The notes: generated from the sequence alone by a model not told the origin. Positions 13,057 through 58,028 are shown, counted from the stretch's first letter. The stretch: 64,000 nucleotides of DNA from Pseudarcicella hirudinis (GCF_900115665.1 NZ_FOXH01000001.1:179777-243776); one strand, 5' to 3'. A program made the numbers and translations.

Positions 13057-13100
13057 AATGAATAAAGGCTGTAATGCCGGTCAATCACAAATCTAAAATA

Positions 13101-14714: not shown

Positions 14715-14743
14715 TATTTCTGATGAAATTTCCTTTGATTTAC

Positions 14744-14779: not shown

Positions 14780-14790
14780 TGCCCCGGCTC

Positions 14791-15861: not shown

Positions 15862-16039
15862 GAAATATTACTGAAAAGTTGGAACAATTATTTTAAAGGA
15901 CCCTTGAGCTAATTGGAAATAAACCTGATAAAATGGTTTAACTGACCTCTATTTTTATTTATACCTGATACCCGACAGAGTAAGGAGCAGGAAGTTTCAA
16001 TTCTTTCCACCCTTTCCTTTCTATGCACCTATATGTATC

Positions 16040-17029: not shown

Positions 17030-17410
17030 AGTAGGAAGATTGTTTATAAAATTCAGTTAAATGGTATGCTACAGGAGATTTTAAAATAGTTTTTCAGAAG
17101 TTCTTTAAACAGTATCCCGTTTGTATTTCATAATTTCAGCGAATGTACTTAATTTATGGATTGTTGCATGACCTGTTTTATGAAGTTTTCCGGATGAATT
17201 TTTGTAATATGCTGATAATCAGTATAAAATCAGGGGTTTTTTCTTAAGTTGTTAAAAATATTATAAAAATTGGGTAAAGATTAAACACTTAAGACTTTAA
17301 CAGATAAATGCATAAAGCAACCGATTGCATAAAATGAAAAAATGATGAAATTACAGCATTTCTTATCTTTTCAGCACATTCAAAACTTGTACTAAAATTT
17401 TATTTAACTG

Positions 17411-39620: not shown

Positions 39621-40643
39621 TTGAATCCTAACCCGATTGCTATGAAAAGCAAAGCATTTTTCCGGATAATGTCTTTTGTACCTGTTCTTTCGGTTGCGAT
39701 CCTGACTGAATGTAAAACGGAACTGCCTCCCGTCATTTTAAGCAAATCAATCAGCGGAGTGAGGAATGATATTCCAAGAAAAGCGACAGATGCCTGTTTA
39801 ATCCGCTATGCTCAGGGGAATAATTTTATCGGTTTGAGTGATAAAGTTCAGTTAAGTGCTGTTTCTGATGCGTTTTCTGTCTGGCAGAAAGCCAATAAAA
39901 ATGTACTTTTTTTGAATTATAGTGTGCCTGAAAAGGCAGAAATACTGATAAAATTTGTTGAACCATCAGAAATAGGAGGGGATCGGGTCTTTTCAGGCGG
40001 CGGCTTATTCCCGATTGGAATTGCTAATCTTACCTCCGGTAAATTTGCCGGCAAACAATTTATCATTTCAATTGATAACACTTATCCCTGGACGAAGGAA
40101 AGTCTTAGCCGTGCCATTGCTTATCATGCTGGCCTTTTTTTAGGAATGGGTACCTCCGACAATGCCAGCTCAATCATGAATCCGTATCTGAATGATAAGA
40201 TAAAAACACTTTCTCTTAAAGATTCATTATCATATAATCAGCTATATTCCAGTTCATGTCGTGATCTGGATTGCAATTTTTTACCCATATCTTTTAAGTT
40301 AAATACGCTGGTAAATAAATGCCTGAAAATTGAAAAGGAGGGAACGGTTGTCATTAAAGCCTCCGGACAAATCTGGTTCGGGCAATGGCTGCAATATGGC
40401 AAACCTGATGGCAGGGCAGATGGTTTGTTTGGTTTTCCGCTGACAGGATACAAAATCGTTCCGGAGTTAAATTTCGGGGCATTGATGTACAAACTTAATC
40501 AGGAAAAAAGCTGGCATCCCTGCGGATCGGAATGTGAATTTAAGGTAGGAGCAAATCAGTACCTGGATTTAAGTCTCGATGTCAATGATAATGAAAAGGG
40601 AGATAATGCCGGTGAATTTGATATTCTGATAAATTATAAATAA
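39621..40643 (+). CDS. Matrixin (M10)-like lipoprotein with degenerate zinc site (pseudo-metalloprotease). Paralogue of 47425..48381
   Basis: Lipobox ...AILTEC. AFSVWQKANKNVLF (matrixin AFxxW...F). YPWTKESL (DExWT-like). AIAYHAGLFLGMGTS...SIMNPY aligns to HExxHxxGxxH...M-turn (xxMxP), with E replaced by A and two His replaced by F and G. Confidence 0.5.
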   Translation: MNPNPIAMKSKAFFRIMSFVPVLSVAILTECKTELPPVILSKSISGVRNDIPRKATDACLIRYAQGNNFIGLSDKVQLSAVSDAFSVWQKANKNVLFLNYSVPEKAEILIKFVEPSEIGGDRVFSGGGLFPIGIANLTSGKFAGKQFIISIDNTYPWTKESLSRAIAYHAGLFLGMGTSDNASSIMNPYLNDKIKTLSLKDSLSYNQLYSSSCRDLDCNFLPISFKLNTLVNKCLKIEKEGTVVIKASGQIWFGQWLQYGKPDGRADGLFGFPLTGYKIVPELNFGALMYKLNQEKSWHPCGSECEFKVGANQYLDLSLDVNDNEKGDNAGEFDILINYK

Positions 40644-40955
40644 TCTGTTTTTTTTGTTACCAAATGGTAAATATGAATGAGCCGCAGATTTTGCCATGAA
40701 GTGTTTTGTCTGAGAAATTTTCATCAGAATTTTAGATAAAGCACTAAAAAGAGAGAATTGTGCAAAAATCTGGTGGTCAATAAATTAAGGTTTGTTTTTG
40801 TATTCATGTTTCAGGGAGAAATATTAAATTTTAATAGGTTGAAACATCAGCTTCCCGATTGCTTTTTTGGGTATTTTTGAACATTTTTGTTGAGGAGCCT
40901 TCGATTTGAAAAGGTTTTACTCCTAACCATTTAATACCACCAAAATAATACGGGT

Positions 40956-43748
40956 TTGAAATTTATGAAATATCGGGTAAACGATTTTCTCTGTTATACA
41001 AAAGCATTTTATCTTGCACTGATCTGTTCGCTTATTGTGCCTTTATCAGAAACCCCTGGTCAGTCTGATAACAAATCTACCCTTATCCAAAATAACAAAA
41101 AAGAGCAGAAATTCTTTGAAACCTTAATCGATGAACTAGAGAAACTCTACAGCAGTAATGATCTTCCCGGAGCCAATACAAAAGGAAGAATTGTTTTAAA
41201 ACTGATTGAAAAATCCCCTTCTCCGCATTTTGTCTCTAAATTTAAAGTGTATTCATTCCTTGCGGCAAATTATGTAAAGCAGGATCGTGAAGATTCCGCA
41301 GTATTCTTTTTTCAGCGCGGCAACGAATTATCGGGTATTTCTCATGAGCTGACAGAGAAGATTCCCGACTATGTCTGCGCACATTGGGGTAATCAGGGAG
41401 TGTTCTACAGAGATAAAGCAAATTTTATCCAATCTGTTAATTGCATCAATAAAGCTATTCAGATTGTGGATCAGTATAGACTAAAGCGTTACAGGCCGAT
41501 TTTACTGAATAATCTTGCCAACAGTTATGATCTGATGGGTAATTCTGAGAAAGCCCTTACCCTGTATAAGCAGATTGAAAGACTCGGTTTACCCGAAGAT
41601 ATTCAACAGGTTTATATACTTTCATCTATGGGCTGGAACTCGTTAAGGCTTAAACAAAATACCAGCGCAGCATTTTACTTTAAGAAAAGCCTGAAATTCT
41701 ACAGAAAACTCCTCAGAAAGAAAGCCATTTCAGAGGACAGTGAATTGGAAACGAGACTTCTGTATCATATTGGTCTTTGTGAATCAAGAACTAAATCCTA
41801 TCAGCAAAGCAATCTTTTTTTAACCAATGGCATTAATGCGCAATTATCCAAAGGATTATTAAAAGGCCGATACCTTGCCTTATGTTATGACCGAAAAGCA
41901 AGAAATGCCGGAGAAAACGGACAAATTTCAGAGGCATTGTCTTTTATTCAGCAGGGTTTGATGGCTGTAGTCCTGAATTTTGACGATTTGAATCCTAAAA
42001 AAAATCCGGAGCTGTCGCAGATAAACCTCGGACAGCAGACATTATTTCAATTACTGGCATTTAAAGGAAAACTACTTTTTCAACTGTATGAAAAAACACA
42101 TAATGAAGAATTGCTTAAGTCTTCAGTCAAGACTTTTCAGCTGGCCGTTATGCTTGCAGATAATTACAGAAAAGAGATTGATTTTCAGGATGATAAAGTG
42201 TATTTTACACAGTCGAATACAACTGTTTTCCATGAAGCGATAGAAGTGACCTATCAATGGTATATCAAAAGTCCTTCGAGGGAAAAAGCTACTATTTTAT
42301 TTGAATTAATTGAAAGCAACAAAGCGGTTTCATTGAATGATTTTGTTGAACGTTATAAAACTGAAGAACCAAAGATACCAGGTGATCTGCTTTCCAATGA
42401 AAAGAAAGAGATGGCTATCAATTCAGGACTGAGGCAAATGATCCTGCAAAATGCCGGCAGGGAAAAACCCGATAGTCTGAAAAAGCTTTTGACAGACAGC
42501 GAATTGAGACTTTATCAGATAAAAGCGACTATTTCAAAACACCTTCCGTTTAATATTTACCGGAATACAGAAAAGACATTTTTATTGAAGGAACTAACGG
42601 CATTACTAAGTAAAGAAACAGCCTATCTGAGCTATACATTTACCGATTCCGGGAATTTACTCGTCATGGGATTAAGTAGTAAGTCGTTTATAATCAGGAA
42701 AATACCTGTTTCAAAAGAATTCTATGACGAAGTTTCCGGTTTAATTCCAAAATTACATACTAATCCTATTTTTCAGGGATACCTCGGGAATAAGGAGGGA
42801 ATCCGGCTGTATAATTACCTGATCAAACCCATAGAACATTTTCTGGCCGGAATTGAGCGTTTAATAATTTGCCGTGATGGTGCGCTTAATTACCTTCCTT
42901 TCGAGGTATTGGAAACAGGGAAGAAGAAAGACGATTACCTGGTTAATCATTATGCTGTTACCTATGTTTATTCCGGATTAAGTTATGTGCTGCGGCATGA
43001 AAATGAAACTACTTCGAAGAATCGATTGCTTACGATGGTACCATTTAACCACCAGCGGATTACAGCAGAGGGAGATACCTTAAAAGCACTGAGAACTTCC
43101 GAGCAGATTAAAAAAATGAGTCATCGCTGGATCAGCGATAAAATGGCTACCAAAGAAGCATTTATTCAAAATATTAAAGAAAATAACCTGCTGAATCTGG
43201 TGGTTCATTCAGACATGGATCCTTCGGATCCGGCAAATTCCTATGTATATTTTTATCCGGATTCGAAAAAAGAGAAATGGAAACTGGGCTTTTACGAATC
43301 TCTCTCTTTACCCTTACAGAACTGTAAATTACTGGAAATAAGCTCATGCAATAGTGCAAATGGTCAGTTTGAGGCAAATGAAGGGCTTATTTCATTAACC
43401 TATGCTTTTACAAGAGCAGGCTGTCGTTCGGTAGTTGGTGCACAGTGGAAGGCACATGACCGCTCAAGTGCCTACATCAGCGGGTTGTTTTTTGAATACC
43501 TGAATAAGGGTTTTCCGAAAGATATTGCCCTGCAAAAAGCAAAGGTAGATTTTATCCAATCTTCCGTTGGACTGGATCTGGATCATCCTTTTTACTGGGC
43601 GAATTTAATCCTTACTGGAAGTAATCAACCGATTGCTGATAAGGTCGGATTACCTGTCTGGCTGATTGTATTGATTACATTGGCGCTTATCAGTTCAGCC
43701 ATATTGCTAAGAGTCAGGTTTTTCACCGGAAAAGCTAAGAGTGAATGA
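40956..43748 (+). CDS. Membrane-anchored TPR-repeat plus CHAT-domain (caspase-like) protease
   Basis: N-terminal signal/TM. Central TPR-like helical repeats. C-terminal CHAT with His (LVVHSDMDPSDP) and Cys (LLEISSCNSANG) dyad motifs. Terminal TM helix PVWLIVLITLALISSAILL. Confidence 0.8.
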   Translation: MKFMKYRVNDFLCYTKAFYLALICSLIVPLSETPGQSDNKSTLIQNNKKEQKFFETLIDELEKLYSSNDLPGANTKGRIVLKLIEKSPSPHFVSKFKVYSFLAANYVKQDREDSAVFFFQRGNELSGISHELTEKIPDYVCAHWGNQGVFYRDKANFIQSVNCINKAIQIVDQYRLKRYRPILLNNLANSYDLMGNSEKALTLYKQIERLGLPEDIQQVYILSSMGWNSLRLKQNTSAAFYFKKSLKFYRKLLRKKAISEDSELETRLLYHIGLCESRTKSYQQSNLFLTNGINAQLSKGLLKGRYLALCYDRKARNAGENGQISEALSFIQQGLMAVVLNFDDLNPKKNPELSQINLGQQTLFQLLAFKGKLLFQLYEKTHNEELLKSSVKTFQLAVMLADNYRKEIDFQDDKVYFTQSNTTVFHEAIEVTYQWYIKSPSREKATILFELIESNKAVSLNDFVERYKTEEPKIPGDLLSNEKKEMAINSGLRQMILQNAGREKPDSLKKLLTDSELRLYQIKATISKHLPFNIYRNTEKTFLLKELTALLSKETAYLSYTFTDSGNLLVMGLSSKSFIIRKIPVSKEFYDEVSGLIPKLHTNPIFQGYLGNKEGIRLYNYLIKPIEHFLAGIERLIICRDGALNYLPFEVLETGKKKDDYLVNHYAVTYVYSGLSYVLRHENETTSKNRLLTMVPFNHQRITAEGDTLKALRTSEQIKKMSHRWISDKMATKEAFIQNIKENNLLNLVVHSDMDPSDPANSYVYFYPDSKKEKWKLGFYESLSLPLQNCKLLEISSCNSANGQFEANEGLISLTYAFTRAGCRSVVGAQWKAHDRSSAYISGLFFEYLNKGFPKDIALQKAKVDFIQSSVGLDLDHPFYWANLILTGSNQPIADKVGLPVWLIVLITLALISSAILLRVRFFTGKAKSE

Positions 43749-45028
43749 TTTGCTGCAACGCAGTAACTTTTGATTTCATGCCGGGAATATTTAATAAAAA
43801 GGAAAATATGAAGGAAAATTTACTCTTACAGCAGGTAATACAGGCATACCAGGGGACAGACTCAGTAGTCAGGAGAAAAGCTATTGATAAATTTAAGGCA
43901 GAATTTACGCATAAATTGACGAAATATGCAAAAGATCAATTCGGGAATGATGAAGTAAGTAGTGCAGTGAACAAAAGTTTTGAGGATTTTTTGCTCACCG
44001 TAATTGGGTGCAATTATATTCCAGATGAAGTGTTCAAATCATTGAAAGACTTTTTACTTATTGATTATTACGAAGAAAAACTGTACAACGATTTTAAGGT
44101 TTTTCTTTCGCATAAAGACAGAACTCTGTTGAGTACGGAAAGAAAACTCAGAAAGGTTAATCAGGCTTTGCTGAATTTTTTATCTGAAAAACATTTGCGA
44201 AATGAATTGTCAGAAACTCCTGAGGAAGAGCCTTTTGCATTAGCCAAACTCAGCCATGACTGGATTAATGAGTTTACTTTCAATATATACCTGTATAAAA
44301 TTCTTTCGGGAGAAAGAAATCTTAAACATAACAGGACCCGGAAGCTAAAGAATATTGTGACGGATTCCTTCGCAGTTTTTATGCTTCGTTTTTCTCAGAA
44401 TAAAAATTCGAGAACCAGAATTGAGGGAGAAATAGGGTTTAATGTTCGCCTCCAGCTTGGCAGATTTGAGAAGGAAATGAAGACGATTGATACATTTCCC
44501 GATATTTTTTCCAGATCGCTGGAAATCCTGCTCAATAAGTTAAAAGAAAGTGATACAGTTCTCAAAACAACAATAATTCAGTTCTGGCTGGGTATTTTAA
44601 GGAATCAGCTGAAAGAAGGCAAAAAAGAAATTAACCCGAATAAAAGTAAGGTAAATATTGATGATGAAATAGATTACTCCGGTCGTCAGAATCTGAGAGA
44701 AGAAATATTTGCATTTATTCAGGAAGGGCTGGAGGCTATAAAGGATGTTCATGGTGGAAAGGCCATGAAGTTACTTTTGACAGGAAGACCAGGCAGGTTT
44801 ACCATAATTGTTATGGCTGCCACATTTGATAATATTCCGGATTGGCTAAAAAAAAGCCCCGACCCTGATTATGGAAATAAAGCTTCTGAAGCGCAGCAAA
44901 GGCAGGACTGTAAGAAAGCTCTGGTTCAATGGATGAATCTTCAGGTAGATGATCCTGAGAGCAACTGGTATGGGAACAGAGGACGGAATTTGATTGATTT
45001 CATTTGTAAAAAACCCGGAAAGAAATGA
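43745..45028 (+). CDS. Divergent ECF-sigma-like protein with ~180-aa C-terminal extension (translationally coupled to the CHAT gene)
   Basis: ATGA overlap with the upstream stop (alternative start at 43808 after aaaaaggaaaat). A region-2-like segment (...KSFEDFLLTV...) and a region-4-like HTH (FAVFMLRFSQNKNSRTRIEGEIGFNVRLQLGR, compared with canonical VFVLRY.EGLSYEEIAEILGISVGTVKSRL). Resemblance judged by eye only. Confidence 0.4.
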   Translation: MICCNAVTFDFMPGIFNKKENMKENLLLQQVIQAYQGTDSVVRRKAIDKFKAEFTHKLTKYAKDQFGNDEVSSAVNKSFEDFLLTVIGCNYIPDEVFKSLKDFLLIDYYEEKLYNDFKVFLSHKDRTLLSTERKLRKVNQALLNFLSEKHLRNELSETPEEEPFALAKLSHDWINEFTFNIYLYKILSGERNLKHNRTRKLKNIVTDSFAVFMLRFSQNKNSRTRIEGEIGFNVRLQLGRFEKEMKTIDTFPDIFSRSLEILLNKLKESDTVLKTTIIQFWLGILRNQLKEGKKEINPNKSKVNIDDEIDYSGRQNLREEIFAFIQEGLEAIKDVHGGKAMKLLLTGRPGRFTIIVMAATFDNIPDWLKKSPDPDYGNKASEAQQRQDCKKALVQWMNLQVDDPESNWYGNRGRNLIDFICKKPGKK

Positions 45029-45759
45029 GTAAAACGAATAATGACGGAAATTTTGAGGAAATAGAAAAGTTTCTTCATGGACAACTTAGTCCTGAAGCAG
45101 AATTACTTTTTTATCAGAGACTTAAAACCGATGAAGCATTTTTAAGAGATTTTCAACTGTGGACCAATCTGGAAGACTGGCTGGAAGAGGTTACAGAAAA
45201 TGAAATAAAAGCTGCTGTTAATATTCAGCCGATGGGGAGCGCCCGTCATGAAGGTGAAAATAAGGGAATTGTTTTGAAAATGCTGACGAATAAAAAACAA
45301 CCGGTATTAGTTATGCTGGTATTGATGGTTTGTTTTGGAGGTTTAATGTATTGGTATGTAAGGTTTTATGAAAGTGGTTCTGAGCTGGTTACCGGACAAA
45401 TGAGTTATATTGAAGGTAACACTAATACCGGGAAAGGAGCATTTGAGGGAGATGGATCCGTTGAGGCGAAAGTACCATTAAACTGGCGGGCTGAAAAGTA
45501 TGAGGGAAAAGATATCATGTATCAGTTTTTTTACCCGGACTCTCTATCCAGTCCTACAGAAATCATTTTCAGAGTTCCTGACCTGACTAAAGATTTTGCG
45601 AAAGGAGCGATATTATTTTATAGCTGGTCACATAAAAAGTTTATCCTGAAAATGGATAACCAAGTCTTTTTTATCAATAAAACCCATGATTGGGAAAAGT
45701 TAGTCCCTCATAAAAATGAAGAAAATTTACGGCCTGATAGCAATAATTCTGATAACTAA
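45025..45759 (+). CDS. Anti-sigma-factor-like single-pass membrane protein
   Basis: ATGA overlap with the upstream gene. The N-terminal FEEIEKFLHGQLSPEAELLFYQRLKTDEAFLRDF parallels the N-terminus of the anti-sigma at 60140 (LDAIERFCRGEMNTPEKEEFDRLLTNDPLLAKE). Central TM VLVMLVLMVCFGGLMYWYV. Confidence 0.45.
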   Translation: MSKTNNDGNFEEIEKFLHGQLSPEAELLFYQRLKTDEAFLRDFQLWTNLEDWLEEVTENEIKAAVNIQPMGSARHEGENKGIVLKMLTNKKQPVLVMLVLMVCFGGLMYWYVRFYESGSELVTGQMSYIEGNTNTGKGAFEGDGSVEAKVPLNWRAEKYEGKDIMYQFFYPDSLSSPTEIIFRVPDLTKDFAKGAILFYSWSHKKFILKMDNQVFFINKTHDWEKLVPHKNEENLRPDSNNSDN

Positions 45760-47428
45760 CTTTTCGGCATTTTGTCAGAACACAAAATGTGAATGTGAGG
45801 ATGTACTGAATAACAGAAATCCGGATAAGAGCTTTTTTCCCCTGAAAGATGCTACGAAGGAAAAAATAGATAAATGGGTAAACAAGATATTTTTACCTAT
45901 TTATAACGAAGCCCTCAGAGCCAGAGGGTTGCCTCAGTTTATCAGACTGGAAGTGAATGTTTTTAGCGTGAACTGTGTATCCGGCTATGGAGCTCTGGCA
46001 AAAAAATGCGAAAAGGAAAAGATTAACGGGAACCCTTTAATGATCCTTTATGATGAACAGTTTATCAATAAAATAGATCTGAAAAATGAGCTGAATACTT
46101 TGTTTGTATTGGCTCATGAATTAGGTCATATCGTTTCTGATCACTATCACAGCACGCTTCCCTATGATGAGTCTTACGATAATTATCTGAAAAAATTGAA
46201 CAAAAGTTATTACAGAGAAGAGCAGGATAACCGTGACAAGAAAAAAATGACTATCAGTGAAAAACACCTTGAGGAACTGACAGCTGATGGTTTTGCTATT
46301 TGGTTTCTCCGGAAGTTTTACGAAAAAAATCAGAGTAATAAAGCCATTGCCAGACAATTTGATCCGAAGAATTTATTACAGATTTTCCCGTCCATTGAAG
46401 AGCTTGAACCTGCAAAGTGTAAGGAGTCAGATTCTCATCCGGGTTGTAAAAGAAGACAATATTTCATCAGTAAGTTAATGGCTTCCGGGAATTGGGAGCA
46501 GGTAATGAATTTTAAAAAGAACATAAGAAGTTTTGCTTCAGAGTATATCGATTCAACCTATACCATTTTGTCTAAAAAAGAGATTGAACAAATGGGGCAG
46601 ATTGCTAAAAGAGCAAGAGAGAAAATTACCGGAGATTCTCTGAAGAGGATAGGAGAGCATTTTCTGAATAAGGAACAATACCTGAAAGCTGATTCATATT
46701 TTAAGCAATCAATTGCCATTTATTCTAATCTGGTTTATCCGGAAGACTCAGCAGATGTGGCACAAAAACTGGAAGAACTTAAGCAGATTTTATCAGTCAG
46801 ATCCTTTTCAAGATTGTCATTGCTGGGAGGATTGGATTTTATTAAGCCTCATCTGGTTTCAGGAAATGAGTCAGTTAACGCCACAAATGCCGGAATCGGG
46901 TTTGCAGGGCTACGACTGGGGAGATATAGTTATACCCGAAAACTTGGTTATGAGATAGATTTTAAATATGCTCTTCAGACACTTCAGTTTGATACTTATA
47001 AAGATGAGGCATCTGCTATTGAACGGTTTAACAGTTCCTCAATCTATATTCAACCCAGAATTGCCTTTAAACTGATTTCTGACGTCAGAGATAATAATAC
47101 CAGAGGTCTGATTCTTTCTGTAGGCCCCTCGCTGATGTATCCTTTAAATTTTAAATATCAGAATTTCTCCGTAGGAGGGGGGAATACACTTGGTGTTACG
47201 ATGAAACCGTCGGCAGGAATTAATTTTGGCCTGGGTTATGAGTATTTGCACAGAAAACTGACAGGAAGTACCTGGAATCATTGGAGGGTATCTTTAAATG
47301 GAGGATACCAGCCACTTAAATTTGAAAGTGAGCAGCTTGTAAATCAAAATTACTCAGCGGGTTTCTGGTTGCTGGGGCTTGACTTTACACTTGGAATTTT
47401 ACCTAAGTTTTTAATAAAAAAAGAATGA
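45716..47428 (+). CDS. Secreted HExxH zinc metallopeptidase-like protein with C-terminal beta-rich (possibly barrel) domain
   Basis: Signal MKKIYGLIAIILITNFSAFCQ. FVLAHELGHIVSDHY carries an intact HExxH. The C-terminal half has alternating-hydrophobic strands. The 5' end overlaps the upstream gene by 44 nt. Confidence 0.5.
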   Translation: MKKIYGLIAIILITNFSAFCQNTKCECEDVLNNRNPDKSFFPLKDATKEKIDKWVNKIFLPIYNEALRARGLPQFIRLEVNVFSVNCVSGYGALAKKCEKEKINGNPLMILYDEQFINKIDLKNELNTLFVLAHELGHIVSDHYHSTLPYDESYDNYLKKLNKSYYREEQDNRDKKKMTISEKHLEELTADGFAIWFLRKFYEKNQSNKAIARQFDPKNLLQIFPSIEELEPAKCKESDSHPGCKRRQYFISKLMASGNWEQVMNFKKNIRSFASEYIDSTYTILSKKEIEQMGQIAKRAREKITGDSLKRIGEHFLNKEQYLKADSYFKQSIAIYSNLVYPEDSADVAQKLEELKQILSVRSFSRLSLLGGLDFIKPHLVSGNESVNATNAGIGFAGLRLGRYSYTRKLGYEIDFKYALQTLQFDTYKDEASAIERFNSSSIYIQPRIAFKLISDVRDNNTRGLILSVGPSLMYPLNFKYQNFSVGGGNTLGVTMKPSAGINFGLGYEYLHRKLTGSTWNHWRVSLNGGYQPLKFESEQLVNQNYSAGFWLLGLDFTLGILPKFLIKKE

Positions 47429-48381
47429 AGTATTTGATAGCCAGTATTGTTGCGATAATTTCTTTGTTTTTGGTATTCGCCTGCGTAGAAGAGTTAAAAA
47501 CCGGAGATAGTTTCTCTTATTATAGTATTGTGAAAGATGAAGAAATTCAAAGTTCACTGAAATCCTGCTTTATTAAGTTCGGAATTACTAATTATTCCGG
47601 GAATTTTACCTTAAAAGAACAGGACGAAGCTATAGCAGAAGCCTTTGAAAGCTGGCAGCCTGAAATTACAAAGTTGTATTTTGCACAGGCCGGAATTAAC
47701 GAAAAAAAAGATTTTGCCATTGAGTTTTCCGCTGAAAACCTGTTTTCCGGTAAACAGAAAAATGCCGGATTGTTAAAGTTTAAAACCGGAGATGTTTTAA
47801 GCATTATCCGTCTTTCAGACACCCAGCCTTTTGTGAAATTCGTACTTAATGAAAACTATCACTGGGACAAGGCTACCTTCAAGGGGGTTATCCTGTTTCT
47901 CACCGGAAAAGTCCTAGGCTTACAGGTATCTGAAGTTCCTGGGTCAATACTGAATGAGGACGTTTCAAAGTTAAATACTAAAAATGCTCCCGGTAGTGAA
48001 GACCTGGAAACTGTTAAGAATCTGCTTCAGAATAAATGTAAGGAGGAAATTTTCTTCAATATTGTTACTTCTGCCTCAGATTCCGGGATAGACCTGAATC
48101 ATGTTCTTAGCATGCGAAATAACCCGGAAGGGCTTGTTTTTGAAAACGGATTTCTTCTTTCAACTGATTTTCAGTTTCCAACCCTTGATAAATATGCAAG
48201 AATTAAAGTATTAGACAGAAATGTGATAAAAACTAACCCTTATGGCTCTCCGATCGGTTTGAACAGACAATTCCCGCTAGACTCACTGAAATCCGGTACC
48301 AGCTATTATCTGAGAGGTTATTTTAAGGATAACACCGGGCGAGTTGTGTACAGCAAACAACTGAAGTTTAAAACAAACTAA
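47425..48381 (+). CDS. Matrixin-like lipoprotein paralogue with fully degenerate zinc site
   Basis: Lipobox ...LVFAC. CFIKFG...AEAFESWQPEITKLYF and YHWDKATFKGVILFLTGKVLGLQVSEVPGSILNED align with 39621..40643 (CLIRYA...DAFSVWQKANKNVLF; YPWTKESLSRAIAYHAGLFLGMGTS...SIMNPY). All three His are lost. ATGA overlap with the upstream gene. Confidence 0.45.
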   Translation: MKYLIASIVAIISLFLVFACVEELKTGDSFSYYSIVKDEEIQSSLKSCFIKFGITNYSGNFTLKEQDEAIAEAFESWQPEITKLYFAQAGINEKKDFAIEFSAENLFSGKQKNAGLLKFKTGDVLSIIRLSDTQPFVKFVLNENYHWDKATFKGVILFLTGKVLGLQVSEVPGSILNEDVSKLNTKNAPGSEDLETVKNLLQNKCKEEIFFNIVTSASDSGIDLNHVLSMRNNPEGLVFENGFLLSTDFQFPTLDKYARIKVLDRNVIKTNPYGSPIGLNRQFPLDSLKSGTSYYLRGYFKDNTGRVVYSKQLKFKTN

Positions 48382-48460: not shown

Positions 48461-49468
48461 ATGATGAGACAATTAATTTACCGGTCTGCCTTTATCATCA
48501 CAATATTGGCTATACTGCAAAGTTGTGAGCGTATTATTGAAGTACCGATCGCAGGAGAAGCTTCCGGGGCTATTATCAGAGTTGGCACTCCTTCCAGATC
48601 CGGACAAACAGCTACTTTCACGATAGATGTGCATGTAGTAGATGGCGCCGGAAATTATGCGAGTGGATTAGGAGCGCAAAATTTCACGATGATGGAAGAT
48701 ACAACCGGAAGAAAATATTCGCTTTCTTTTAGGTTACTTGATATCAAAGGGGGCAACAGAACTCCCGTAAAAGGTGATTACAATGCATTCCTCTTACTGG
48801 ATCAAAGCGGAAGTACGGATGATACAGATCCGGACAATCTGAGAATCAGGTCAAGCCAGATTTTTCTTGAATCTATGGGAAATAATGATAAAGTAGCATT
48901 AGGAAGTTTTACTACAGGTCAGCTTTATCCTTCATTGAGTGGAAATGTGCATTTACACGGAGGGTTTAATGCTAAAGGAACAACTTTTTATCCGGCATTA
49001 GATTCACTTAAGAATACAATTCTTAAAGGAAATACGCCTTTATTTACATCAACAGCCTGGGCAATTAATTACACTGCTGCAAATGCTAAAGCCCAAAATA
49101 AAGTTGTTATTTTGTTTACAGACGGACAGAATAACGGAGGCTCCAGTCAGTCTGCCGTAGAATCATTATCTCTTCAAAAAAAAGTGCCGGTCTATACGGT
49201 AGGTCTGAGCACAGATGTTGGCTTTGATGTACTTAATAACATGGCTCTCAATACCGGAGGTAGTTTCATGTGGGCGAAAGATGCTAAACAGCTTATCAGT
49301 TATTTCGGAACACTGGGAAATTTATTAAGAGGGAATGCAGAATACTATACCCTGACGTTCGAAGCAAGTGCCGGCAGTTTACCGACTTTCAGTAAATTAT
49401 TGTACTTACAGGTAAGCCTTCCGAATGGTAAGAAATTCTGGATGCCATATGTCATCAAACTGGCATAA
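48461..49468 (+). CDS. von Willebrand factor type-A (vWA) domain lipoprotein
   Basis: Lipobox ...ILQSC. MIDAS motif LLLDQSGST. Downstream ...TAWAI... and VILFTDGQNNGG. Confidence 0.8.
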   Translation: MMRQLIYRSAFIITILAILQSCERIIEVPIAGEASGAIIRVGTPSRSGQTATFTIDVHVVDGAGNYASGLGAQNFTMMEDTTGRKYSLSFRLLDIKGGNRTPVKGDYNAFLLLDQSGSTDDTDPDNLRIRSSQIFLESMGNNDKVALGSFTTGQLYPSLSGNVHLHGGFNAKGTTFYPALDSLKNTILKGNTPLFTSTAWAINYTAANAKAQNKVVILFTDGQNNGGSSQSAVESLSLQKKVPVYTVGLSTDVGFDVLNNMALNTGGSFMWAKDAKQLISYFGTLGNLLRGNAEYYTLTFEASAGSLPTFSKLLYLQVSLPNGKKFWMPYVIKLA

Positions 49469-49605
49469 TCTTCCGGTAAATAGTGAAACAGTCAGAACAT
49501 AATTTCCTGTCCGGAGCATTTCCGGATAAAGAGGACACCTTTGCCCTTACCAGGATAAATACTTTGAAAAAGCCATAAATCTTAAATCAATTGATCTGAA
49601 ATCCG

Positions 49606-50748
49606 ATGAAAAAAATAACAAAACAGAACTTATTGAAATTTATATTGATGAACCTATATATAGTTCCGTCAGTTTGGGGGCAGGACGTTATTTACCTGAA
49701 AGATCATACCAGTCTGGCATGTAAAATTCAGGAAGTTAGTCCCGAGAAAATCAAATATAAAAGGCCGGATAATCCGGAAGGACCGAATTATTCGGTAAAA
49801 ACGGAGACAACATTGCTGATTATTTCTGAAAAAGGCTCTTATCTGACGAGTGCTGAATTGACTGACGGTGCCGTTGATCCGACAAGTATTACTGAACATT
49901 TTAATATAACACTAAATGCTCCTTCACCTCAGTATGATCAGATTATTACTAATTCTGACATGCTGAAAGTTACAATAGATCAGGATATTGATCCGTTAAT
50001 CTATATTTCACAATCCGGAGAAAGTAAGAGTATTGTTTTGTCGGAAGTGCTGGCTGTTTTATACAAAGATGGTCATCATAAACTCATCGCTGATCCCGAG
50101 AAAGTGGCAGAAATTCTGACGAAGCTGAAAAGCCATGAAACAGGTATGAAAAACCCTGCAATCAGCCAGGCTGATAAAGAAAACAGCGAAAAAACGGTGT
50201 TGGCTCCGATACAGAATAACATGTCTGATATTGACATGGGGGAACTGGGGATGGTTAAATTCGAAGATTACAGTGAGAAAGCAATGGCAAAGGTCAGGGA
50301 ATTTACCAACGTAATTACCATACTGGCCAACAAGGAAACAGATTTTAATGAATCTAATAAAATCATTGAGAAGACCATAGAGCTTTTCCTCGACGATAAA
50401 GCCAGGGTTGAAGTAAGTAGTATCAGTCGTCCTGAAAAAAAGAAATACCTGATCCGTGAATACCTCAAACGAATCAAGCTTTTAAAGTATGATAATGTTG
50501 AGGTGTCATATTCTAATATTCAATATGTAGGCAAGCTCAGAAAAGCAGCCAATGGCTTGTATTACGGCATTGTTTCTTTTGAACAGGCCTTTACAGGTTA
50601 TCGTGACGGAAGGATAGTTTATCAGGACAAAACTGTTAAAAATCATACCGTTGTGGTTAAAGTTTCTGAAGAGATGATTAGTGGTACCACGAGTTTATGG
50701 TGGGACGTCTTCCTATACGATGTTGGGGTAGTGGAAACAAAAGGATAA
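49606..50748 (+). CDS. Secreted hypothetical protein with N-terminal ~55-aa module shared with 56590..57912
   Basis: Signal peptide. DVIYLKDHTSLACKIQEVSPEKIKYKR parallels DRIYRTDKTIIEGKIEEISETEILYK and DRIIRKDGGIVEGKIVNASPGKIEYK in the later gene. Confidence 0.4.
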   Translation: MKKITKQNLLKFILMNLYIVPSVWGQDVIYLKDHTSLACKIQEVSPEKIKYKRPDNPEGPNYSVKTETTLLIISEKGSYLTSAELTDGAVDPTSITEHFNITLNAPSPQYDQIITNSDMLKVTIDQDIDPLIYISQSGESKSIVLSEVLAVLYKDGHHKLIADPEKVAEILTKLKSHETGMKNPAISQADKENSEKTVLAPIQNNMSDIDMGELGMVKFEDYSEKAMAKVREFTNVITILANKETDFNESNKIIEKTIELFLDDKARVEVSSISRPEKKKYLIREYLKRIKLLKYDNVEVSYSNIQYVGKLRKAANGLYYGIVSFEQAFTGYRDGRIVYQDKTVKNHTVVVKVSEEMISGTTSLWWDVFLYDVGVVETKG

Positions 50749-50773
50749 TATTCACGCAAAACGACCTGAGATT

Positions 50774-51667
50774 ATGTTTATATTCTTCAAAGAATTCAAA
50801 AGAGAATACCCGGAATTTATGCCGGGGCCGTCAGTGAAAAACTTTTGGTTATTCACACTGAAAAAAGAAGCCAATATTCAGAGTGCAACAATGCCTGGAT
50901 TATTTCAGTCAGTGAATTATTCACTGCTGCTTGCCGGATTTGCCTTAATCATTATTTTGGAAGGAGCAGCTACTAAAATCGCTTCGGTGTATGGCGTAAG
51001 TCTGATGGCGATTCTGGCAGCAATAGTTGTTGATATTATTCTGGCGGTCATTTCTCATATTTATCATGGCAAAATCTGCCTTCTGAAAAACAAACTGTTT
51101 ATAGAGGAAACGAAGCAGAAAAGAGATCAGATTAACAGGAGTATCAGCAACCTGAAATGGTGGTCATGGTTCTGGTATACAATCATACTTTTTTCAGGGT
51201 TATTTAAATTCTACTGGTTTTATATTGTTTATAAAATCTATCTTATTCCCTTTGGTTTAAATTATGATGCCTATTCGATATTGGTCTTCTTCTGTTATTT
51301 TGTAGCTTCCTGGTTGCATATATTTTGTACTGGTTATGTGTTCTACACCTCTTATTTTCATTACAGAATTCATAAAGAAGAACGAAAGTATATTTATTTG
51401 CCGGAAGACAAACTGTTGGATGATAATTCTTTAAGGGATAAGAAAAATCCAAGACCGATTACTGCCAATGTTGAGCTGATTCCTGTTAAAGAAGGTTCAC
51501 ATTCCTTGTATAAAGATGAAAAAGACGGTAAATATTACCTTGAAACGCTTGGGATTTTCCTTGATGAGGAATTGAGAAGAATGATCGATCGTCAGCACAA
51601 CGCCGACCAAAGACGGACATTGGCTCAGGAAGGTGTAAGGATTCAGCTGGATATTCTCAACAAATAG
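50774..51667 (+). CDS. Polytopic integral membrane protein (hypothetical)
   Basis: Four to five hydrophobic helices (e.g. LLLAGFALIIILEG, LMAILAAIVVDIILAVISHIY, WWSWFWYTIILFSGLF, ILVFFCYFVASWLHIFCTGYVFY). Confidence 0.4.
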   Translation: MFIFFKEFKREYPEFMPGPSVKNFWLFTLKKEANIQSATMPGLFQSVNYSLLLAGFALIIILEGAATKIASVYGVSLMAILAAIVVDIILAVISHIYHGKICLLKNKLFIEETKQKRDQINRSISNLKWWSWFWYTIILFSGLFKFYWFYIVYKIYLIPFGLNYDAYSILVFFCYFVASWLHIFCTGYVFYTSYFHYRIHKEERKYIYLPEDKLLDDNSLRDKKNPRPITANVELIPVKEGSHSLYKDEKDGKYYLETLGIFLDEELRRMIDRQHNADQRRTLAQEGVRIQLDILNK

Positions 51668-51671
51668 ATCT

Positions 51672-52796
51672 ATGAAAATACAATGTGCTCTCATCTTATT
51701 GATTTCTTTGTTCATGGAGAATTGTATCGGAAATTCTTCCGGAGAAGGAAATGCCGCTTCCCTGAAAATAGTTCCCTTTACTCCGGAACTCAGAACGCAA
51801 CAGGAACAGATGTTAAATGCTTTTGATAAGAAGATGCTGAATACTTATCCGGTTACAATTTTAGTAAATGCACCATTATCAAAAGACTCGACCGCACATC
51901 TGCCGGATGTGTTTAAAGTATTATTAGAATATAAGGGAAATGGAGGCTGTATGGATACTGAAATTTTACCGGTAGGGACCTTGCGTAAAATCGGGAATAA
52001 TCAGGAATATAATCTTTTTCCTGCATTGATAATACCGCCATCGTTTGACAAAAGTAAGATTACGTTACTGCTCAAACCTCAGATTGACGGATTTTGGAGG
52101 AGTGCTGTGCTTAGGAAACTCTTTGTACAGCCTCCCGTTAATCCGGATAACTATCTCAAAGAATTGCCTGAAAGTTCTGCTGAAATTTTTGTGCTGGAAA
52201 GCAAGACTGATGCCCGCATTTCAATAGAGTTGCCCGGACAGAAAAAGTACCAGGTTTTTAAGGATCCGGAAGAATTGAGAAAAAAAATGGATGAACTGGC
52301 ATGTGCTTCTTCCGGGAAATTTAAGGCCCTTGTGCTTTTTGGCCTGAATCCCGAGAAAACTCAAAAAACAACAGCTACAGCCATACCAGGAAATTCTCAG
52401 AAAAAAGTACCCGATCCGGTTAGGCAGCCCATAGAACTCAAAGGAAAGAAAAAGCCGGAGAATCAGGCAGAGGTAATTAATACCACTATTATAGGCGGAG
52501 AGGGTAATCCTGAAGTGAAAGAAAGACTTCGCCTGTTAAAAAATAACCTGAAAATAATGGTTTCCGGGGGGGACATTCTCATAACAAACCGTGCTTATGA
52601 AGCGGCTTTAGCCATGTTTGAAAGTGAAACGTTTGTAGATGTTTTCAGCCTCGATAAAAGCGGAAGCAAGCGATTCAGGATCAAAAATTTCCTGATCCGG
52701 AATAAACTGATGCGACAACCCATTGCCATTGAGCAAATCAGGGTTTCAGGAAAAACTTCCGGACAGACTTTTGACCAGATGAGGGTGATTGAATAA
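51672..52796 (+). CDS. Hypothetical lipoprotein
   Basis: Lipobox ...LFMENC. No motif recognised. Confidence 0.4.
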   Translation: MKIQCALILLISLFMENCIGNSSGEGNAASLKIVPFTPELRTQQEQMLNAFDKKMLNTYPVTILVNAPLSKDSTAHLPDVFKVLLEYKGNGGCMDTEILPVGTLRKIGNNQEYNLFPALIIPPSFDKSKITLLLKPQIDGFWRSAVLRKLFVQPPVNPDNYLKELPESSAEIFVLESKTDARISIELPGQKKYQVFKDPEELRKKMDELACASSGKFKALVLFGLNPEKTQKTTATAIPGNSQKKVPDPVRQPIELKGKKKPENQAEVINTTIIGGEGNPEVKERLRLLKNNLKIMVSGGDILITNRAYEAALAMFESETFVDVFSLDKSGSKRFRIKNFLIRNKLMRQPIAIEQIRVSGKTSGQTFDQMRVIE

Positions 52797-52802
52797 ATCC
52801 TG

Positions 52803-53687
52803 ATGAGAATGAAAATCTTTATTTTGATATTTTGGGCGTTTACAGTCAGTTACGGTCATGCACAAGCCCGGATAGAGCGTCAAAGGATTGAAGATAAGTC
52901 TGTTATTTACGATCGGCAGGCAGAAGAAAGGTTTGCTTTCCAGGTGAAAACCATTGATGAATTTATGGAAAGATTTAATGATTCTGAGTCCACGCTTCTT
53001 CGGAAATACCTGGATGTAAGCAGACCAGGCGTTATTAAATCTGACCGGATCAGAATGCTGAAGGCTTTGTTTGAAAAGAAAAGTTTTGTCAAAGATTCTT
53101 TAAAAACGGCTTTTGCAGCATCTGTTTGTGATAGTTTAAATCCTCAGTTTCTTAACTTTTTTCAGAAAAACTGGTATGCTCAGGCGCAATGTTTATTTCA
53201 GGATGGGGCTCGTAATAAGTACATTACCTTAGTTCTGAAGGTTTTGAGAACTGCAAACGGTGGAAGCAAATGGGTCATAGCCGGTGCAAGTGAATACGGT
53301 ATAGCAAAACAAAATAAAAGTACTGTCCGAATGACAGGAGGAGATACCCGGAAGGGACTTAATCCTTATAGCCATGTGATGGATTTTACAGAACTGGAAG
53401 ATGCACTTGAGGATAAAATAAATATCGAAAGTTACCTGGATGAAGGCTTTCTGACACTTAAAAATCAACCGATTATCGAAGCGATCCTTTCCGGGAAAAT
53501 AAGATTTAATTATGTGCAGGAAATTACCTACCATTTTCTCCAGATTGAGGGCTGGATCTTTTCCGTTCAGAATTTTAAAAGAATGACAAGGCAATCGGGC
53601 TGGCTGATCACTCAGCTGCAGCCTGCCGATAAAGAGGAGAAGGATTTTTATAAACAGGCCGTATTAGCGCTGAAAGTAACACAATGA
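52803..53687 (+). CDS. Hypothetical secreted protein
   Basis: Signal MRMKIFILIFWAFTVSYGHAQ. Confidence 0.4.
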   Translation: MRMKIFILIFWAFTVSYGHAQARIERQRIEDKSVIYDRQAEERFAFQVKTIDEFMERFNDSESTLLRKYLDVSRPGVIKSDRIRMLKALFEKKSFVKDSLKTAFAASVCDSLNPQFLNFFQKNWYAQAQCLFQDGARNKYITLVLKVLRTANGGSKWVIAGASEYGIAKQNKSTVRMTGGDTRKGLNPYSHVMDFTELEDALEDKINIESYLDEGFLTLKNQPIIEAILSGKIRFNYVQEITYHFLQIEGWIFSVQNFKRMTRQSGWLITQLQPADKEEKDFYKQAVLALKVTQ

Positions 53688-56581
53688 AAGTATCTGTAAT
53701 AATTGGAAGCCTTATTTTAATTTCTTCCTTATCCCTGAAAGCGCAGCAGGATAAGGAGAATATACCTGTATATGTAAAAGACGGCTCTCAGATTATTTTT
53801 CAGGCAAATCAACTTTTAGAAGAATACAGAGACCTTCTGAATGTCTTGTCTTACAAAGAAATTGATGGAAAATCTACAGAAGACCTGATAACCCACAGCT
53901 ATAACGGACCCATTAATAAGCTTTTTTATAATAAGAACATAACCGTTGAAGATGATCTGGAAGCAACTCTTCTAAACGGTCGGGCCGTTAAGAAATCAAT
54001 CGATAGATACCTTCGGGATTTTGATTTGTTTTATGAGAAAACAGAAGAAAGCTCTGTCGTTTTCAGGAACCTCAGAATGTCGAATGTTAAAAGAACGGCT
54101 GAATACATTTATGTTAAAATTGATTTTGATTGTGAATTTGGAAGCAGGCACCGTCAGACTAAATCCGGTTATACCTCTCATCAGAGAACTATGGAGTTTC
54201 GGGCTGATAAAGCAGGTAAGAAGTGGCTGGTTTATATAGTTCGTATAGGTAACTACGTTTTGCCGCAAAATGAACAGGAAGAACGGCTGAATGATGTAAA
54301 GTTATGGCCCGATATTCAAACGAAAACAACCGGAGAATCTGTCGGAGCGGAATTGTCTCAGCCGGAAATACAGGAACTTCTCGATAAGGAAATAAAAAGG
54401 CTGACGGATGAATTTAAAATAGATCAGGAAGCCAAAGAAAAGATTGTCAAAGAAATTTTGAATAAGGCCGATATTGCGTTTGGACAGGAAGATCTTGAAG
54501 AAGCCCGCAAATTATATGAACAGGTAAAAACTTTTTGGCCCAATATTGAATCAAGACATATTGCAAGACAACTGAGAAGAATTGCTCAATTGGAGGAAGA
54601 ATTAAGGACAAAACCCGAAAGGATGAGCCTTGAATTTGCCCTGAAGGGTAGAAATGCCGAAAGACTTCACCGGTACGCGGAGGCTAAGAACTGGTATGCA
54701 AAGGCTTATGAACAAAAACCGGATCAGGATTCTTTACTTAGAAAAATAGAAAATTTAAATCTCAGAATCAGGGTTTTATCATTCATTGAAGCAAAAATTA
54801 TTGAGGGAAATGCTGATAAAGCGGTGGAGGAATGCGAAAGAGAAATTGATAAATTAAGAAATGGGAAAAAGAAAATTGACGATTCAAAATTGCCGCTTTT
54901 CTCTGACTTTCTGACCTGGAAAGCAAGAGCACTTGCCAAACAAAATAAGTCTGGACAGGCGGAAAAAAACTTTAAGGAAGCTGTTGCTACCGATCCGAAT
55001 AATGCGGAGGCTTTTCGCTATCGGGCATTGCTGAATTACCAGCGGAAACTTTATACGGAATCAATTGCAGACCTGAAGGTTTATCTGACATTTGATGAGA
55101 ATAATACCATTGCATTAATTGATCTGGCCAGATCATATTTTGGCATCAGAGACAGTACAAAAGGAGTTGAATTCCTGAATAAAGTATTAACGATTGAGCC
55201 TCAAAATGCTGTAATAGCTTATGAAAAAGCCCTCATGCTTCATTATTGGGGGAAAGCTAAAGAGGCGGCAGAAGCATTCACCAGGGTATTAAATCTGAAT
55301 TATAACATGGCAAATGTGCTTTTTTACCGGGGACTTAACTATGAAAAGCTGAAATTATATAACTATGCCATAAATGACTTTCAGCAGTTACAGCGAGTCG
55401 GGGCCAGTGCCGACCAGAATACTGCCATTTTAAGCCTTGCTAACAATTATTTCAAAGAGGGGAAAAGTTATTATGATTTGAAGCAATATGAAATAGCGAT
55501 CAACCAATTCAGGATAGCTACCATGTTTTGGGTAAATCATTATGAAGCATGGTTTTGGCAAGGGCTTGCTTTTAAAGAGTCAGATCGGTTTTCAGAAGCC
55601 CGTAAAGCGCTTTCCAAAGCTATTGAAGCAGATCCTTCACAGGCCTGGGCTTACTATTATCGTGGCTTGTCAGCTTTTTCAGATGATGAGCAGGAGGAAA
55701 GCATTTCTGATTTTGAAAAAGCTTTTGAATTATCTTCATCCATTTATCAGGCTCCTGTTAATCAGGGAGATGCACATACTGAACTGATGCAGTATTCACT
55801 TGCAATTGAAGCATATTCAAAGGCTCTGGCAGGAGAGTGGATAAGAAAATCCGAGAATTATAACGGATTATCACTGGTTTACGGGAAGAGGGCAAATGCC
55901 TATTTTAAGCAAAAAAATTACCTGAAAGCTCTTGCTGATTTTGAAGAATGCCTGCGATTCAACCGAAGGTACTCTGATGGATATTTCCTGAGAGGTCTGA
56001 CCTATCTGGAAAAAGATGATTATTCAAAAGCCAATGATGATTTTAACAAGGCGATTGAACTGGGTTTTGATCCGGGACAAGGTCATTTTTACAACGGAGA
56101 GGCTTACAGAAAGAGGAAGAAATTTGAAATAGCGGTAAATGAATATTCCGCAGCCCTTAAAAGAGAAGAATGGATTCAGAAACGGGCTGAAGCTTTTCAC
56201 CAAAGAGCTTTTTGCTACAGTAAGGTTAATCAATATTCATTGGCATTAGCGGATTTCCAATCATATGAAAAGATCGTTTCAGGTAATCTCACCGATGCTT
56301 CGAAAAAAGAGTTTGGGTTTATTTATCTCCTCAACGGTAAAACTGCTGAGGCTAAACAGGAATTTGAAGCAGTACTTAAACTACAGTCTGCCGATCCGGA
56401 GGCTTTATTCGGACTAGGCGTTTATCACTTTTTTGAAGGAAATATGCCCGAATCAGACAAATATTTTGAAAGAGCTGCAAATATGAATAAGCTGACTATC
56501 AGGGAAATGCGTCTGGGCATCTCAGGACAATTATTTGAAAACAGTAAACTGAAGAAAAGAGTAGAGAAAATAATTAAATAA
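53684..56581 (+). CDS. Large secreted tetratricopeptide-repeat (TPR) protein
   Basis: Signal peptide. More than 15 recognisable TPR units (W-LG-Y-A-F-A-P pattern, e.g. AEAFRYRALLNYQRKLYTESIADLKVYL, AWAYYYRGLSAFSDDEQEESISDFEKAF). ATGA overlap with the upstream gene. Confidence 0.75.
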   Translation: MKVSVIIGSLILISSLSLKAQQDKENIPVYVKDGSQIIFQANQLLEEYRDLLNVLSYKEIDGKSTEDLITHSYNGPINKLFYNKNITVEDDLEATLLNGRAVKKSIDRYLRDFDLFYEKTEESSVVFRNLRMSNVKRTAEYIYVKIDFDCEFGSRHRQTKSGYTSHQRTMEFRADKAGKKWLVYIVRIGNYVLPQNEQEERLNDVKLWPDIQTKTTGESVGAELSQPEIQELLDKEIKRLTDEFKIDQEAKEKIVKEILNKADIAFGQEDLEEARKLYEQVKTFWPNIESRHIARQLRRIAQLEEELRTKPERMSLEFALKGRNAERLHRYAEAKNWYAKAYEQKPDQDSLLRKIENLNLRIRVLSFIEAKIIEGNADKAVEECEREIDKLRNGKKKIDDSKLPLFSDFLTWKARALAKQNKSGQAEKNFKEAVATDPNNAEAFRYRALLNYQRKLYTESIADLKVYLTFDENNTIALIDLARSYFGIRDSTKGVEFLNKVLTIEPQNAVIAYEKALMLHYWGKAKEAAEAFTRVLNLNYNMANVLFYRGLNYEKLKLYNYAINDFQQLQRVGASADQNTAILSLANNYFKEGKSYYDLKQYEIAINQFRIATMFWVNHYEAWFWQGLAFKESDRFSEARKALSKAIEADPSQAWAYYYRGLSAFSDDEQEESISDFEKAFELSSSIYQAPVNQGDAHTELMQYSLAIEAYSKALAGEWIRKSENYNGLSLVYGKRANAYFKQKNYLKALADFEECLRFNRRYSDGYFLRGLTYLEKDDYSKANDDFNKAIELGFDPGQGHFYNGEAYRKRKKFEIAVNEYSAALKREEWIQKRAEAFHQRAFCYSKVNQYSLALADFQSYEKIVSGNLTDASKKEFGFIYLLNGKTAEAKQEFEAVLKLQSADPEALFGLGVYHFFEGNMPESDKYFERAANMNKLTIREMRLGISGQLFENSKLKKRVEKIIK

Positions 56582-56589
56582 CTAAAAAT

Positions 56590-57912: not shown

Positions 57913-58028
57913 AACTACACTTGAAATGAGGCTGTATTCGTGTGCTGGTTCTACCCTATTATTTTAAATCAAATAGCCTGTAAAAGGCGCAGCAATTTTT
58001 ACCTGAAAATTAACAGTTGTTTTAATTT

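Follow-up and report, generated by a model that had tools for sequence, protein, structure and literature searches.

We analysed a window of 64,000 nt (the whole stretch of DNA considered here) from Pseudarcicella hirudinis (Cytophagales, Spirosomaceae), in which two genes, copy A and copy B, encode putative lipoproteins whose matrixin-like domain has lost its zinc site. An original prediction on the same DNA had described them as paralogous pseudo-metalloproteases flanking a CHAT module. The two genes and their parts, with protein positions in amino acids (aa), are the following.

39621..40643, + strand: copy A, a 340-aa open reading frame (ORF) for a putative lipoprotein with a dead matrixin domain and a PA-IL-like lectin domain
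39642..39713, + strand: signal-peptide-like segment of copy A, ending in Cys31 with a putative lipobox (...LTEC); this Cys is invariant in 14/14 aligned members
39795..40259, + strand: matrixin-like domain of copy A (aa 59-213), with the conserved Cys59 and Cys213 at its ends
40122..40154, + strand: substituted zinc motif YHAGLFLGMGT of copy A (aa 168-178), placed by karilysin alignments
40176-40178, + strand: Met-turn Met186 of copy A, retained within SIMNPY
40260..40640, + strand: predicted C-terminal PA-IL/LecA-like beta-sandwich of copy A (aa 214-340)
47425..48381, + strand: copy B, a putative lipoprotein with a dead matrixin domain and an FN3-related C-terminal domain
47566-48039, + strand: matrixin domain of copy B (aa 48-205)
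47896..47928, + strand: substituted zinc motif FLTGKVLGLQV of copy B (aa 158-168), followed by SILNED
48040-48378, + strand: FN3-related C-terminal domain of copy B

Both ORFs are open frames on the + strand where they had been placed, and only the start of copy A shifts: as the protein deposited at NCBI has 333 aa, translation probably begins at the ATG at 39642 instead of the TTG at 39621. This P. hirudinis protein matches copy A at 100%, and the ORF of copy B is also 100% identical to a P. hirudinis protein. That A and B are paralogs could be confirmed, with 176 residues aligned at 23% identity (E=2e-11). Since the Cys closing the signal-peptide-like segment is invariant in all the aligned members, both proteins would be lipoproteins. 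The first Cys bracketing the matrixin domain is likewise invariant in the 14 sequences and the second is conserved in at least 90% of them, and the domain thus bracketed carries a possible disulfide.

The relationship to the M10 family, and with it to the metzincins, turned out to be strong by profile as well as by structure. First, A and B reach 28.4 and 31.1 bits, respectively, against Pfam PF00413 (Peptidase_M10), whose gathering score is 24. Second, a profile built from 14 family sequences matches karilysin, a matrixin of the Bacteroidota, over its whole catalytic domain (E=3.4e-15), followed by about 100 entries of matrix metalloproteinases (MMPs). Third, the AlphaFold2 (AF2) model of copy A has a predicted local distance difference test (pLDDT) score of 69.7 overall and of 80-88 in the domain cores, the N-terminal domain of the copy B model also scores 80-88, and the probability-1.00 Foldseek matches of the latter are exclusively MMP catalytic domains, with template modelling (TM) scores of 0.6-0.72. 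The predicted domains have the beta-sheet and three helices of the matrixin catalytic domain in matrixin order.

The karilysin alignments put YHAGLFLGMGT of copy A and FLTGKVLGLQV of copy B onto HEIGHLLGIEH, which gives the following residues at the functional positions.

His1 position: Tyr168 in A, Phe158 in B
Catalytic Glu position: His169 in A, Leu159 in B
His2 position: Leu172 in A, Lys162 in B
His3 position: Thr178 in A, Val168 in B
Met-turn Met position: Met186 in A (kept), Leu176 in B

Read against the zinc consensus HExxHxxGxxH, copy A is thus Y-H-x-x-L-x-x-G-x-x-T and copy B F-L-x-x-K-x-x-G-x-x-V, with both motif glycines retained in each. Counted on the sequence, each of the two matrixin domains contains one His in total. 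The 11-mer of copy A had been described correctly, but its sole His, first taken for a remaining ligand, occupies the position of the catalytic Glu, which leaves no zinc-ligand His; the Glu is therefore replaced by His and not by Ala (H-E-x-x-H reads Y-H-A-G-L). For copy B, the segment first proposed, ILFLTGKVLGL, lies two residues out of register, while it remains true that no zinc-ligand His is left. A Met-turn-like stretch had been seen in both copies: SIMNPY of copy A indeed keeps the Met, whereas SILNED of copy B has a Leu in its place. The structural zinc site (His/Asp/His/His) is missing too, as the karilysin segments NHGD, LAHAF and GHLHFD, in which we take the structural-zinc ligands to lie from established MMP knowledge, align with non-ligand residues. 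As these alignments read, neither the catalytic nor the structural metal site can exist in A or B. Compared with karilysin of Tannerella forsythia and the animal MMPs (MEROPS M10A, PF00413), A and B thus have neither the catalytic-zinc His, nor the Glu, nor the structural-zinc ligands; in addition, no cysteine-switch propeptide is visible, and the two proteins would be lipoprotein-anchored, with other C-terminal modules and in a signalling-type gene cluster. Together, A and B belong to a family homologous to M10 by sequence and fold, yet without its defining catalytic features, that is, to non-peptidase homologues.

This loss is shared by the whole family. Among 22 sequences, some of them closely related, 0/22 have a zinc-position His, 0/22 a Glu where the general base would be and 0/22 an HExxH motif anywhere, whereas the Met-turn Met is retained in 19/22, with Leu in copy B, P0022 and P0011. 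All the closest homologues of copy A (36-40% identity) read AYH[AV]GLxLG[MLV]xTS...SLM, and a full-length orthologue of copy B (P0022, 29% identity) reads FLIGRAYGLSV...SIL and shares both its substitutions and its C-terminal domain. Of all 12-mers in the family, the best conserved is the substituted helix itself, AIAYHAGLFLGM. Its mean column conservation in the lectin type is 0.83, where the overall value is 0.56; family-wide, the two values are 0.66 and 0.42. This helix was also the sole stretch conserved enough to seed a genome scan, which added five loci from four Spirosoma species. A word-index homologue search gave 7 clusters for copy A and none for copy B, for which an exhaustive phmmer search revealed a wider family that the word index had not seen; a metagenome scan with copy B and P0022 found no relatives. 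One short sequence (P0009, 116 aa) is identical to copy B over about 85 residues and then fully divergent, and is probably a frameshifted copy from another assembly.

Since HExxH is absent from all 22 members and the substituted helix is what they conserve best, we are dealing, as the original prediction had supposed, with a stable pseudoenzyme family rather than with recent pseudogenisation; orthologues with an intact HExxH, which would have pointed the other way, did not appear. The family is homologous to an active one, has lost the catalytic residues and is kept under selection, as expected for pseudoproteases, and we are highly confident that it is a conserved pseudo-matrixin family. The absence of the catalytic residues and the very small number of homologues might suggest pseudogenes in decay, or copies of an active matrixin that lost their function recently, but the frames are intact, orthologues at 19-42% identity share both architecture and substitutions, the fold is confidently predicted and synteny is kept across genera, so that we give this explanation almost no credit. 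Recent pseudogenisation was rejected on the conserved architecture and substitutions. It is scarcely less improbable that these proteins are hydrolases with a non-canonical active site, for instance one made of the Tyr/His pair of the helix. The closest orthologues keep this pair without exception (YH[AV]GL), and the helix shows strong conservation, but in other members, copy B included, the His becomes Gln or Leu and the Tyr becomes Phe. No candidate catalytic or metal residue is conserved family-wide, and the domains of A and B have a single His each. A non-canonical site was rejected for want of such a residue.

The dead domain is the constant module of the family, fused to swappable binding domains that are PA-IL-like lectin, FN3-related or Kelch-like. 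For copy A, the C-terminal domain is predicted to adopt the PA-IL beta-sandwich fold. It had no Pfam match at E<=1, and a profile of 11 lectin-type C-terminal domains found no PDB lectin by sequence. An hhalign comparison with a LecA sequence gave a weak match (E=4e-4, probability 35%). In that alignment D100, N107 and N108 of LecA, which we take to have Ca2+ and galactose roles, face family-invariant D, D and N/D, in a loop two residues shorter. The known lectins PA-IL/LecA, PllA and EclA are stand-alone tetramers, whereas the lectin-like domain of copy A is fused and has this shorter binding loop. For copy B, residues 274-317 match FN3-repeat proteins, the model having a pLDDT below 35 there, and the C-terminal domain matched nothing in the PDB. 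A third subgroup, with proteins of about 490-500 aa, has Kelch-like repeats with weak Pfam support.

We then turned to gene order. Pseudo-matrixin queries retrieved ten distinct loci (the window, L001, L002, L005-L010 and L012), of which L010 and L012 were not used in building the models of the neighbouring families X, Y and Z. In 10/10 loci a pseudo-matrixin gene lies directly beside an X-Y-Z-type neighbourhood, which in the window, together with an extracytoplasmic function (ECF) sigma gene pair further away, consists of the following genes (TPR, tetratricopeptide repeat).

40956..43748, + strand: 930-aa TPR-CHAT protein, optional in the cluster (PF12770 CHAT, E=4e-41, plus TPR)
43745..45028, + strand: X, ECF-sigma-like, 427 aa, with an N-terminal extension of about 200-240 aa (hhalign)
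45025..45759, + strand: Y, single-pass anti-sigma-like, 244 aa (hhalign)
45716..47428, + strand: Z, a putative BepA-like M48 HExxH protease with an apparent outer-membrane barrel
59571..60832, + strand: ECF sigma (59571-60143) and TPR-type anti-sigma (60107-60832), from hidden Markov model matches

Y is present in 10/10 loci, X and Z in 9/10 each, and the TPR-CHAT gene in 7/10 (the window, L002, L005, L007, L008, L009 and L010), with orthologues at 26-28% identity; it is absent from L001, L006 and L012. The position of the pseudo-matrixin gene varies: some loci have it in front of X or CHAT, others behind Z. The slot directly after Z is occupied by copy B in the window, by a Kelch-type pseudo-matrixin in L006 and L012 and by a lectin-type one in L010. 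In most Spirosoma loci, a canonical ECF sigma/TPR anti-sigma pair sits between CHAT and X, and the pair of the window has 30-36% and 35-37% identity to it (L002, L005, L007, L008 and L009). Although CHAT does stand beside copy A in the window, taking it as the centre of the module proved too narrow, given that it is missing from 3/10 loci and that the constant neighbours are X, Y and Z. The centre of the system should thus shift from CHAT to the X-Y-Z trio. A reverse search seeded with Z returned distant M48-like genes only, scoring 45-60 bits where orthologues score 180-720. Most of them were on short contigs and none was accompanied by a pseudo-matrixin, X or Y; because of this, the search is silent on the orthologous Z subfamily.

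Some loci have peculiarities of their own. L008, the second locus of Spirosoma validum (9953..17600), contains pseudo-matrixin, CHAT, sigma, anti-sigma, X and Y genes and no Z, and the same genome also holds L006, a complete locus without CHAT and with two pseudo-matrixins. In L009 (15478..16619), the X gene of Spirosoma telluris comes as two overlapping ORFs, each matching the X model, which may reflect a frameshift or an assembly error. Among the distant Z relatives, a marine metagenome contig (L023, 5..3998) carries three Z-like M48 genes next to each other, and no pseudo-matrixin, X or Y lies close to them.

X and Y resemble an ECF sigma/anti-sigma pair, to which X adds its long N-terminal extension. 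When family profiles were compared with hhalign, X matched the ECF sigma family of the cluster over regions 2 to 4 (probability 95%, E=4e-8), and the N-terminal 55 aa of Y matched the anti-sigma family of the cluster (probability 96%, E=1.8e-9). Elsewhere, X gave RpoH region 4 at E=0.1 and Sigma70_r4 at 7e-4 in 1/7 members, its N-terminal extension had no detectable homology, and the Y profile found nothing in the PDB. Y has a hydrophobic segment after its N-terminal domain that we judged by eye to be a transmembrane segment. Hence, sigma regions 2 and 4 appear in X, and an anti-sigma domain followed by a transmembrane segment in Y, as in an ECF sigma/anti-sigma pair. Such pairs are a class known to be under envelope proteolysis (PMC8103513). 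No described ECF group with an X-Y-Z gene context was found in the literature searched.

Regarding Z, the residues H134, E135, H138, H143, E187, A190, D191, H241 and P242 are invariant, giving the pattern HExxH...H...E..AD...SHP. All 7/7 members of the Z family match PF01435 (best 1e-6), the Z of the window scoring 18.9 bits, under the gathering score of 20.3, and the alignment to BepA (E=0.011-0.03) runs across HExxH...E..AD...HP. The C-terminal half of Z is beta-rich and barrel-like, where BepA has only TPRs. It ends in F/S-x-[RF]-W in 4/7 aligned proteins (L001, L002, L006 and L007); the L005 protein ends in F-A-R-W, and the L009 and window proteins are without an F/S-x-[RF]-W ending. A TPR-like insert of some 60 aa sets the Z of the window apart from the Spirosoma copies, which lack it.

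The N-terminus of the TPR-CHAT protein includes a hydrophobic segment and the C-terminus a transmembrane-like one, LPVWLIVLITLALISSAILL, because of which its CHAT domain may be extracytoplasmic. Its caspase-like dyad, a His (LVVHSD) and a Cys (ISSCNS), looks intact by eye. An NCBIfam scan of the cluster proteins gave nothing useful, and PADLOC returned no match for A, B, CHAT, X or Y and a weak capP match for Z (0.0015), no defence-system model fitting the cluster. Rfam found nothing in the window, which also has no tRNAs.

The original prediction had also proposed that A and B might be partners of the adjacent HExxH peptidase, now Z. Since an M48-like orthologue is adjacent in 9/10 loci and Z overlaps copy B by ATGA, synteny supports this partnership, indirectly. 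Similar ATGA overlaps join CHAT to X and X to Y in the window, and the one between Z and copy B suggests translational coupling. That the pseudo-matrixin family works together with the X-Y-Z module is, in our view, probable. We also lean, with somewhat less assurance, towards A and B being functional genes whose products are envelope lipoproteins acting as non-catalytic sensing or regulatory subunits of an X-Y-Z proteolytic signalling module.

How such subunits would work can be sketched. Through its C-terminal module, the lipoprotein would recognise a ligand outside the cell or in the periplasm, possibly a glycan in the case of copy A, and the dead substrate cleft would hold a partner peptide, either the periplasmic part of Y or a part of Z. 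Binding in the cleft would gate the proteolysis of Y, carried out by Z or, in loci that have it, by the CHAT protease, and Y once cleaved would release the sigma-like X. We regard this specific gating, through the dead cleft and the cleavage of Y, as the likeliest mechanism, but as a tentative one that is more probably wrong than right. The same doubt applies to its broader form, a possible Spirosomaceae signalling module in which dead-matrixin receptors with swappable heads would, once ligand is bound, use the old substrate cleft to present the periplasmic part of Y to, or withhold it from, a BepA-like M48 protease anchored in the outer membrane, thereby releasing an extended ECF-like sigma, with a periplasmic TPR-CHAT protease contributing in some loci.

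The main rival is that A and B are outputs rather than parts of the system, namely surface or periplasmic adhesins or lectins that are co-transcribed or sigma-controlled and use the dead domain as a scaffold. It would fit the C-terminal modules, all of them typical binding domains (PA-IL-like lectin, FN3-related or Kelch-like), as well as the continuation of the window cluster with many lipoproteins and exported proteins, e.g. VWA and TPR proteins, and the lack of overlap between copy A and its neighbour. However, a mere scaffold does not need its substituted helix to be the most conserved stretch, the adjacency to X-Y-Z outlasts rearrangement, loss of CHAT and change of the other neighbours, and copy B does overlap Z. 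We therefore find co-regulated adhesins or lectins a serious but rather unlikely explanation.

A further alternative would make A and B decoys or inhibitors that shield substrates, block the active site of Z or CHAT, or soak up inhibitors or foreign matrixin-type proteases. No protease inhibitor is known to use the matrixin fold, and variable ligand-binding C-termini suit sensing better, so that such a role is improbable. It does gain from the two adjacent proteases, which look intact, and from the precedent of the potempins, outer-membrane lipoprotein inhibitors reported to be encoded directly upstream of the KLIKK proteases of T. forsythia, karilysin included (PMC9890683). A decoy or inhibitor role is in any case a variant of the sensing and regulatory function that we favour, negative regulation being one form of gating.

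Several points weigh against that function for A and B. For the proteins, the lipidation of A and B is a prediction, as is the outer-membrane barrel of Z, suggested by its C-terminal half; the sigma assignment of X comes from one profile-profile match together with weak Pfam and PDB matches; the PA-IL link of copy A is weak and at fold level only, and the C-terminal domain of copy B is not confidently modelled. For the loci, L008 has no Z, and the gene at the X position in L010 is without significant similarity to X, no link to X or to an ECF sigma having been found for it; 313 bp lie between copy A and the gene that follows it. For regulation, a bipartite k-mer search of the regions preceding the pseudo-matrixin, CHAT, sigma and X genes revealed no shared promoter, its matches being driven by the near-identical L002 and L007, and scans for sigma-70 promoters and terminators stayed at background level and were uninformative. 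Lastly, a role of A and B in binding, decoy or regulation is one that we infer, the partnership being read from gene order only.

Dead metallopeptidase or protease domains with a regulatory function are known from other systems. In Escherichia coli, the degenerate LytM (M23) domains of NlpD and EnvC have lost their zinc ligands and use the dead groove to activate cell-wall amidases, NlpD being an outer-membrane lipoprotein. Their likeness to A and B lies in the working principle only, an envelope-anchored dead metallopeptidase domain, whereas the fold and family are unrelated, the partners are amidases and there is no sigma/anti-sigma link; for A and B, the interaction is only proposed. Inactive ADAMs (e.g. 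ADAM22, PDB 3g5c) differ in being eukaryotic, of the metzincin family M12B and equipped with other accessory domains. In Clostridioides difficile, two pseudoproteases, CspC and CspA, exert control over CspB (PMC6636752, PMC7200643), and the likeness is that of dead protease homologues serving as signal receptors or regulators of a co-encoded active protease. They differ from A and B by their subtilisin family and Gram-positive spore context, and their role is experimentally established whereas that of A and B is deduced.

Pseudoproteases are thus a known kind of protein to which the present family adds a variant, and the pseudoenzyme reading of the original prediction is supported with minor corrections. 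No description of bacterial pseudo-matrixins or of an X-Y-Z cluster was found in the literature searched. A 2025 survey of bacterial MMPs required HEXXHXXGXXH for inclusion and dropped all sequences without it (PMC12587646), so that families such as this one fall outside it. N-terminally extended ECF sigmas are a recognised class, for which a 2021 review had no mechanistic information on regulation (PMC8103513). If the proposed role is true, the family would show, in bacteria, a metzincin that has become a receptor or regulator, with a metzincin pseudoprotease as the sensor of a bacterial sigma/anti-sigma cascade, and a tractable module for how pseudoproteases gate proteases and how extended ECF sigmas are controlled. 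If the role is wrong, what remains is a clean re-annotation of a small family, as the database names "Matrixin" and "Peptidase M10 domain-containing" imply an activity that these proteins, going by their residues, cannot have.

The module may extend beyond this core. In the window, the + strand stretch 48461..58997 encodes a VWA lipoprotein, several exported or lipoprotein ORFs that match no family, a TPR protein of 965 aa, a protein of 440 aa whose C-terminus is barrel-like and a PD40/TolB-like protein, and the sigma/anti-sigma pair comes next. In L010, CsgG/LpoB-like and PD40 genes follow the pseudo-matrixin gene, and L001 includes LpoB-like and DUF6175 genes close by. A link to surface-protein secretion is hinted at by PorP/SprF-family and PKD/CHU_C genes (CHU_C being the C-terminal domain of type IX secretion), which in L002, L003 and L004 come shortly after the module, and by a CHU_C gene following it in L010. 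L005 and L007 have ORFs of similar size; the positions listed are L002 19528.., L005 19632.., L007 19405.. and L010 15882...

Further upstream in the window, 2233..14714 is an ordinary polysaccharide-utilisation locus with a hybrid two-component regulator, SusC-like and SusD-like proteins, a GH5 enzyme with ricin-B lectin domains and a GH30 enzyme, and 22340..25957 holds a 1205-aa ORF with a calcineurin-like phosphoesterase (Metallophos) domain at its N-terminus and an Omp85 domain at its C-terminus.

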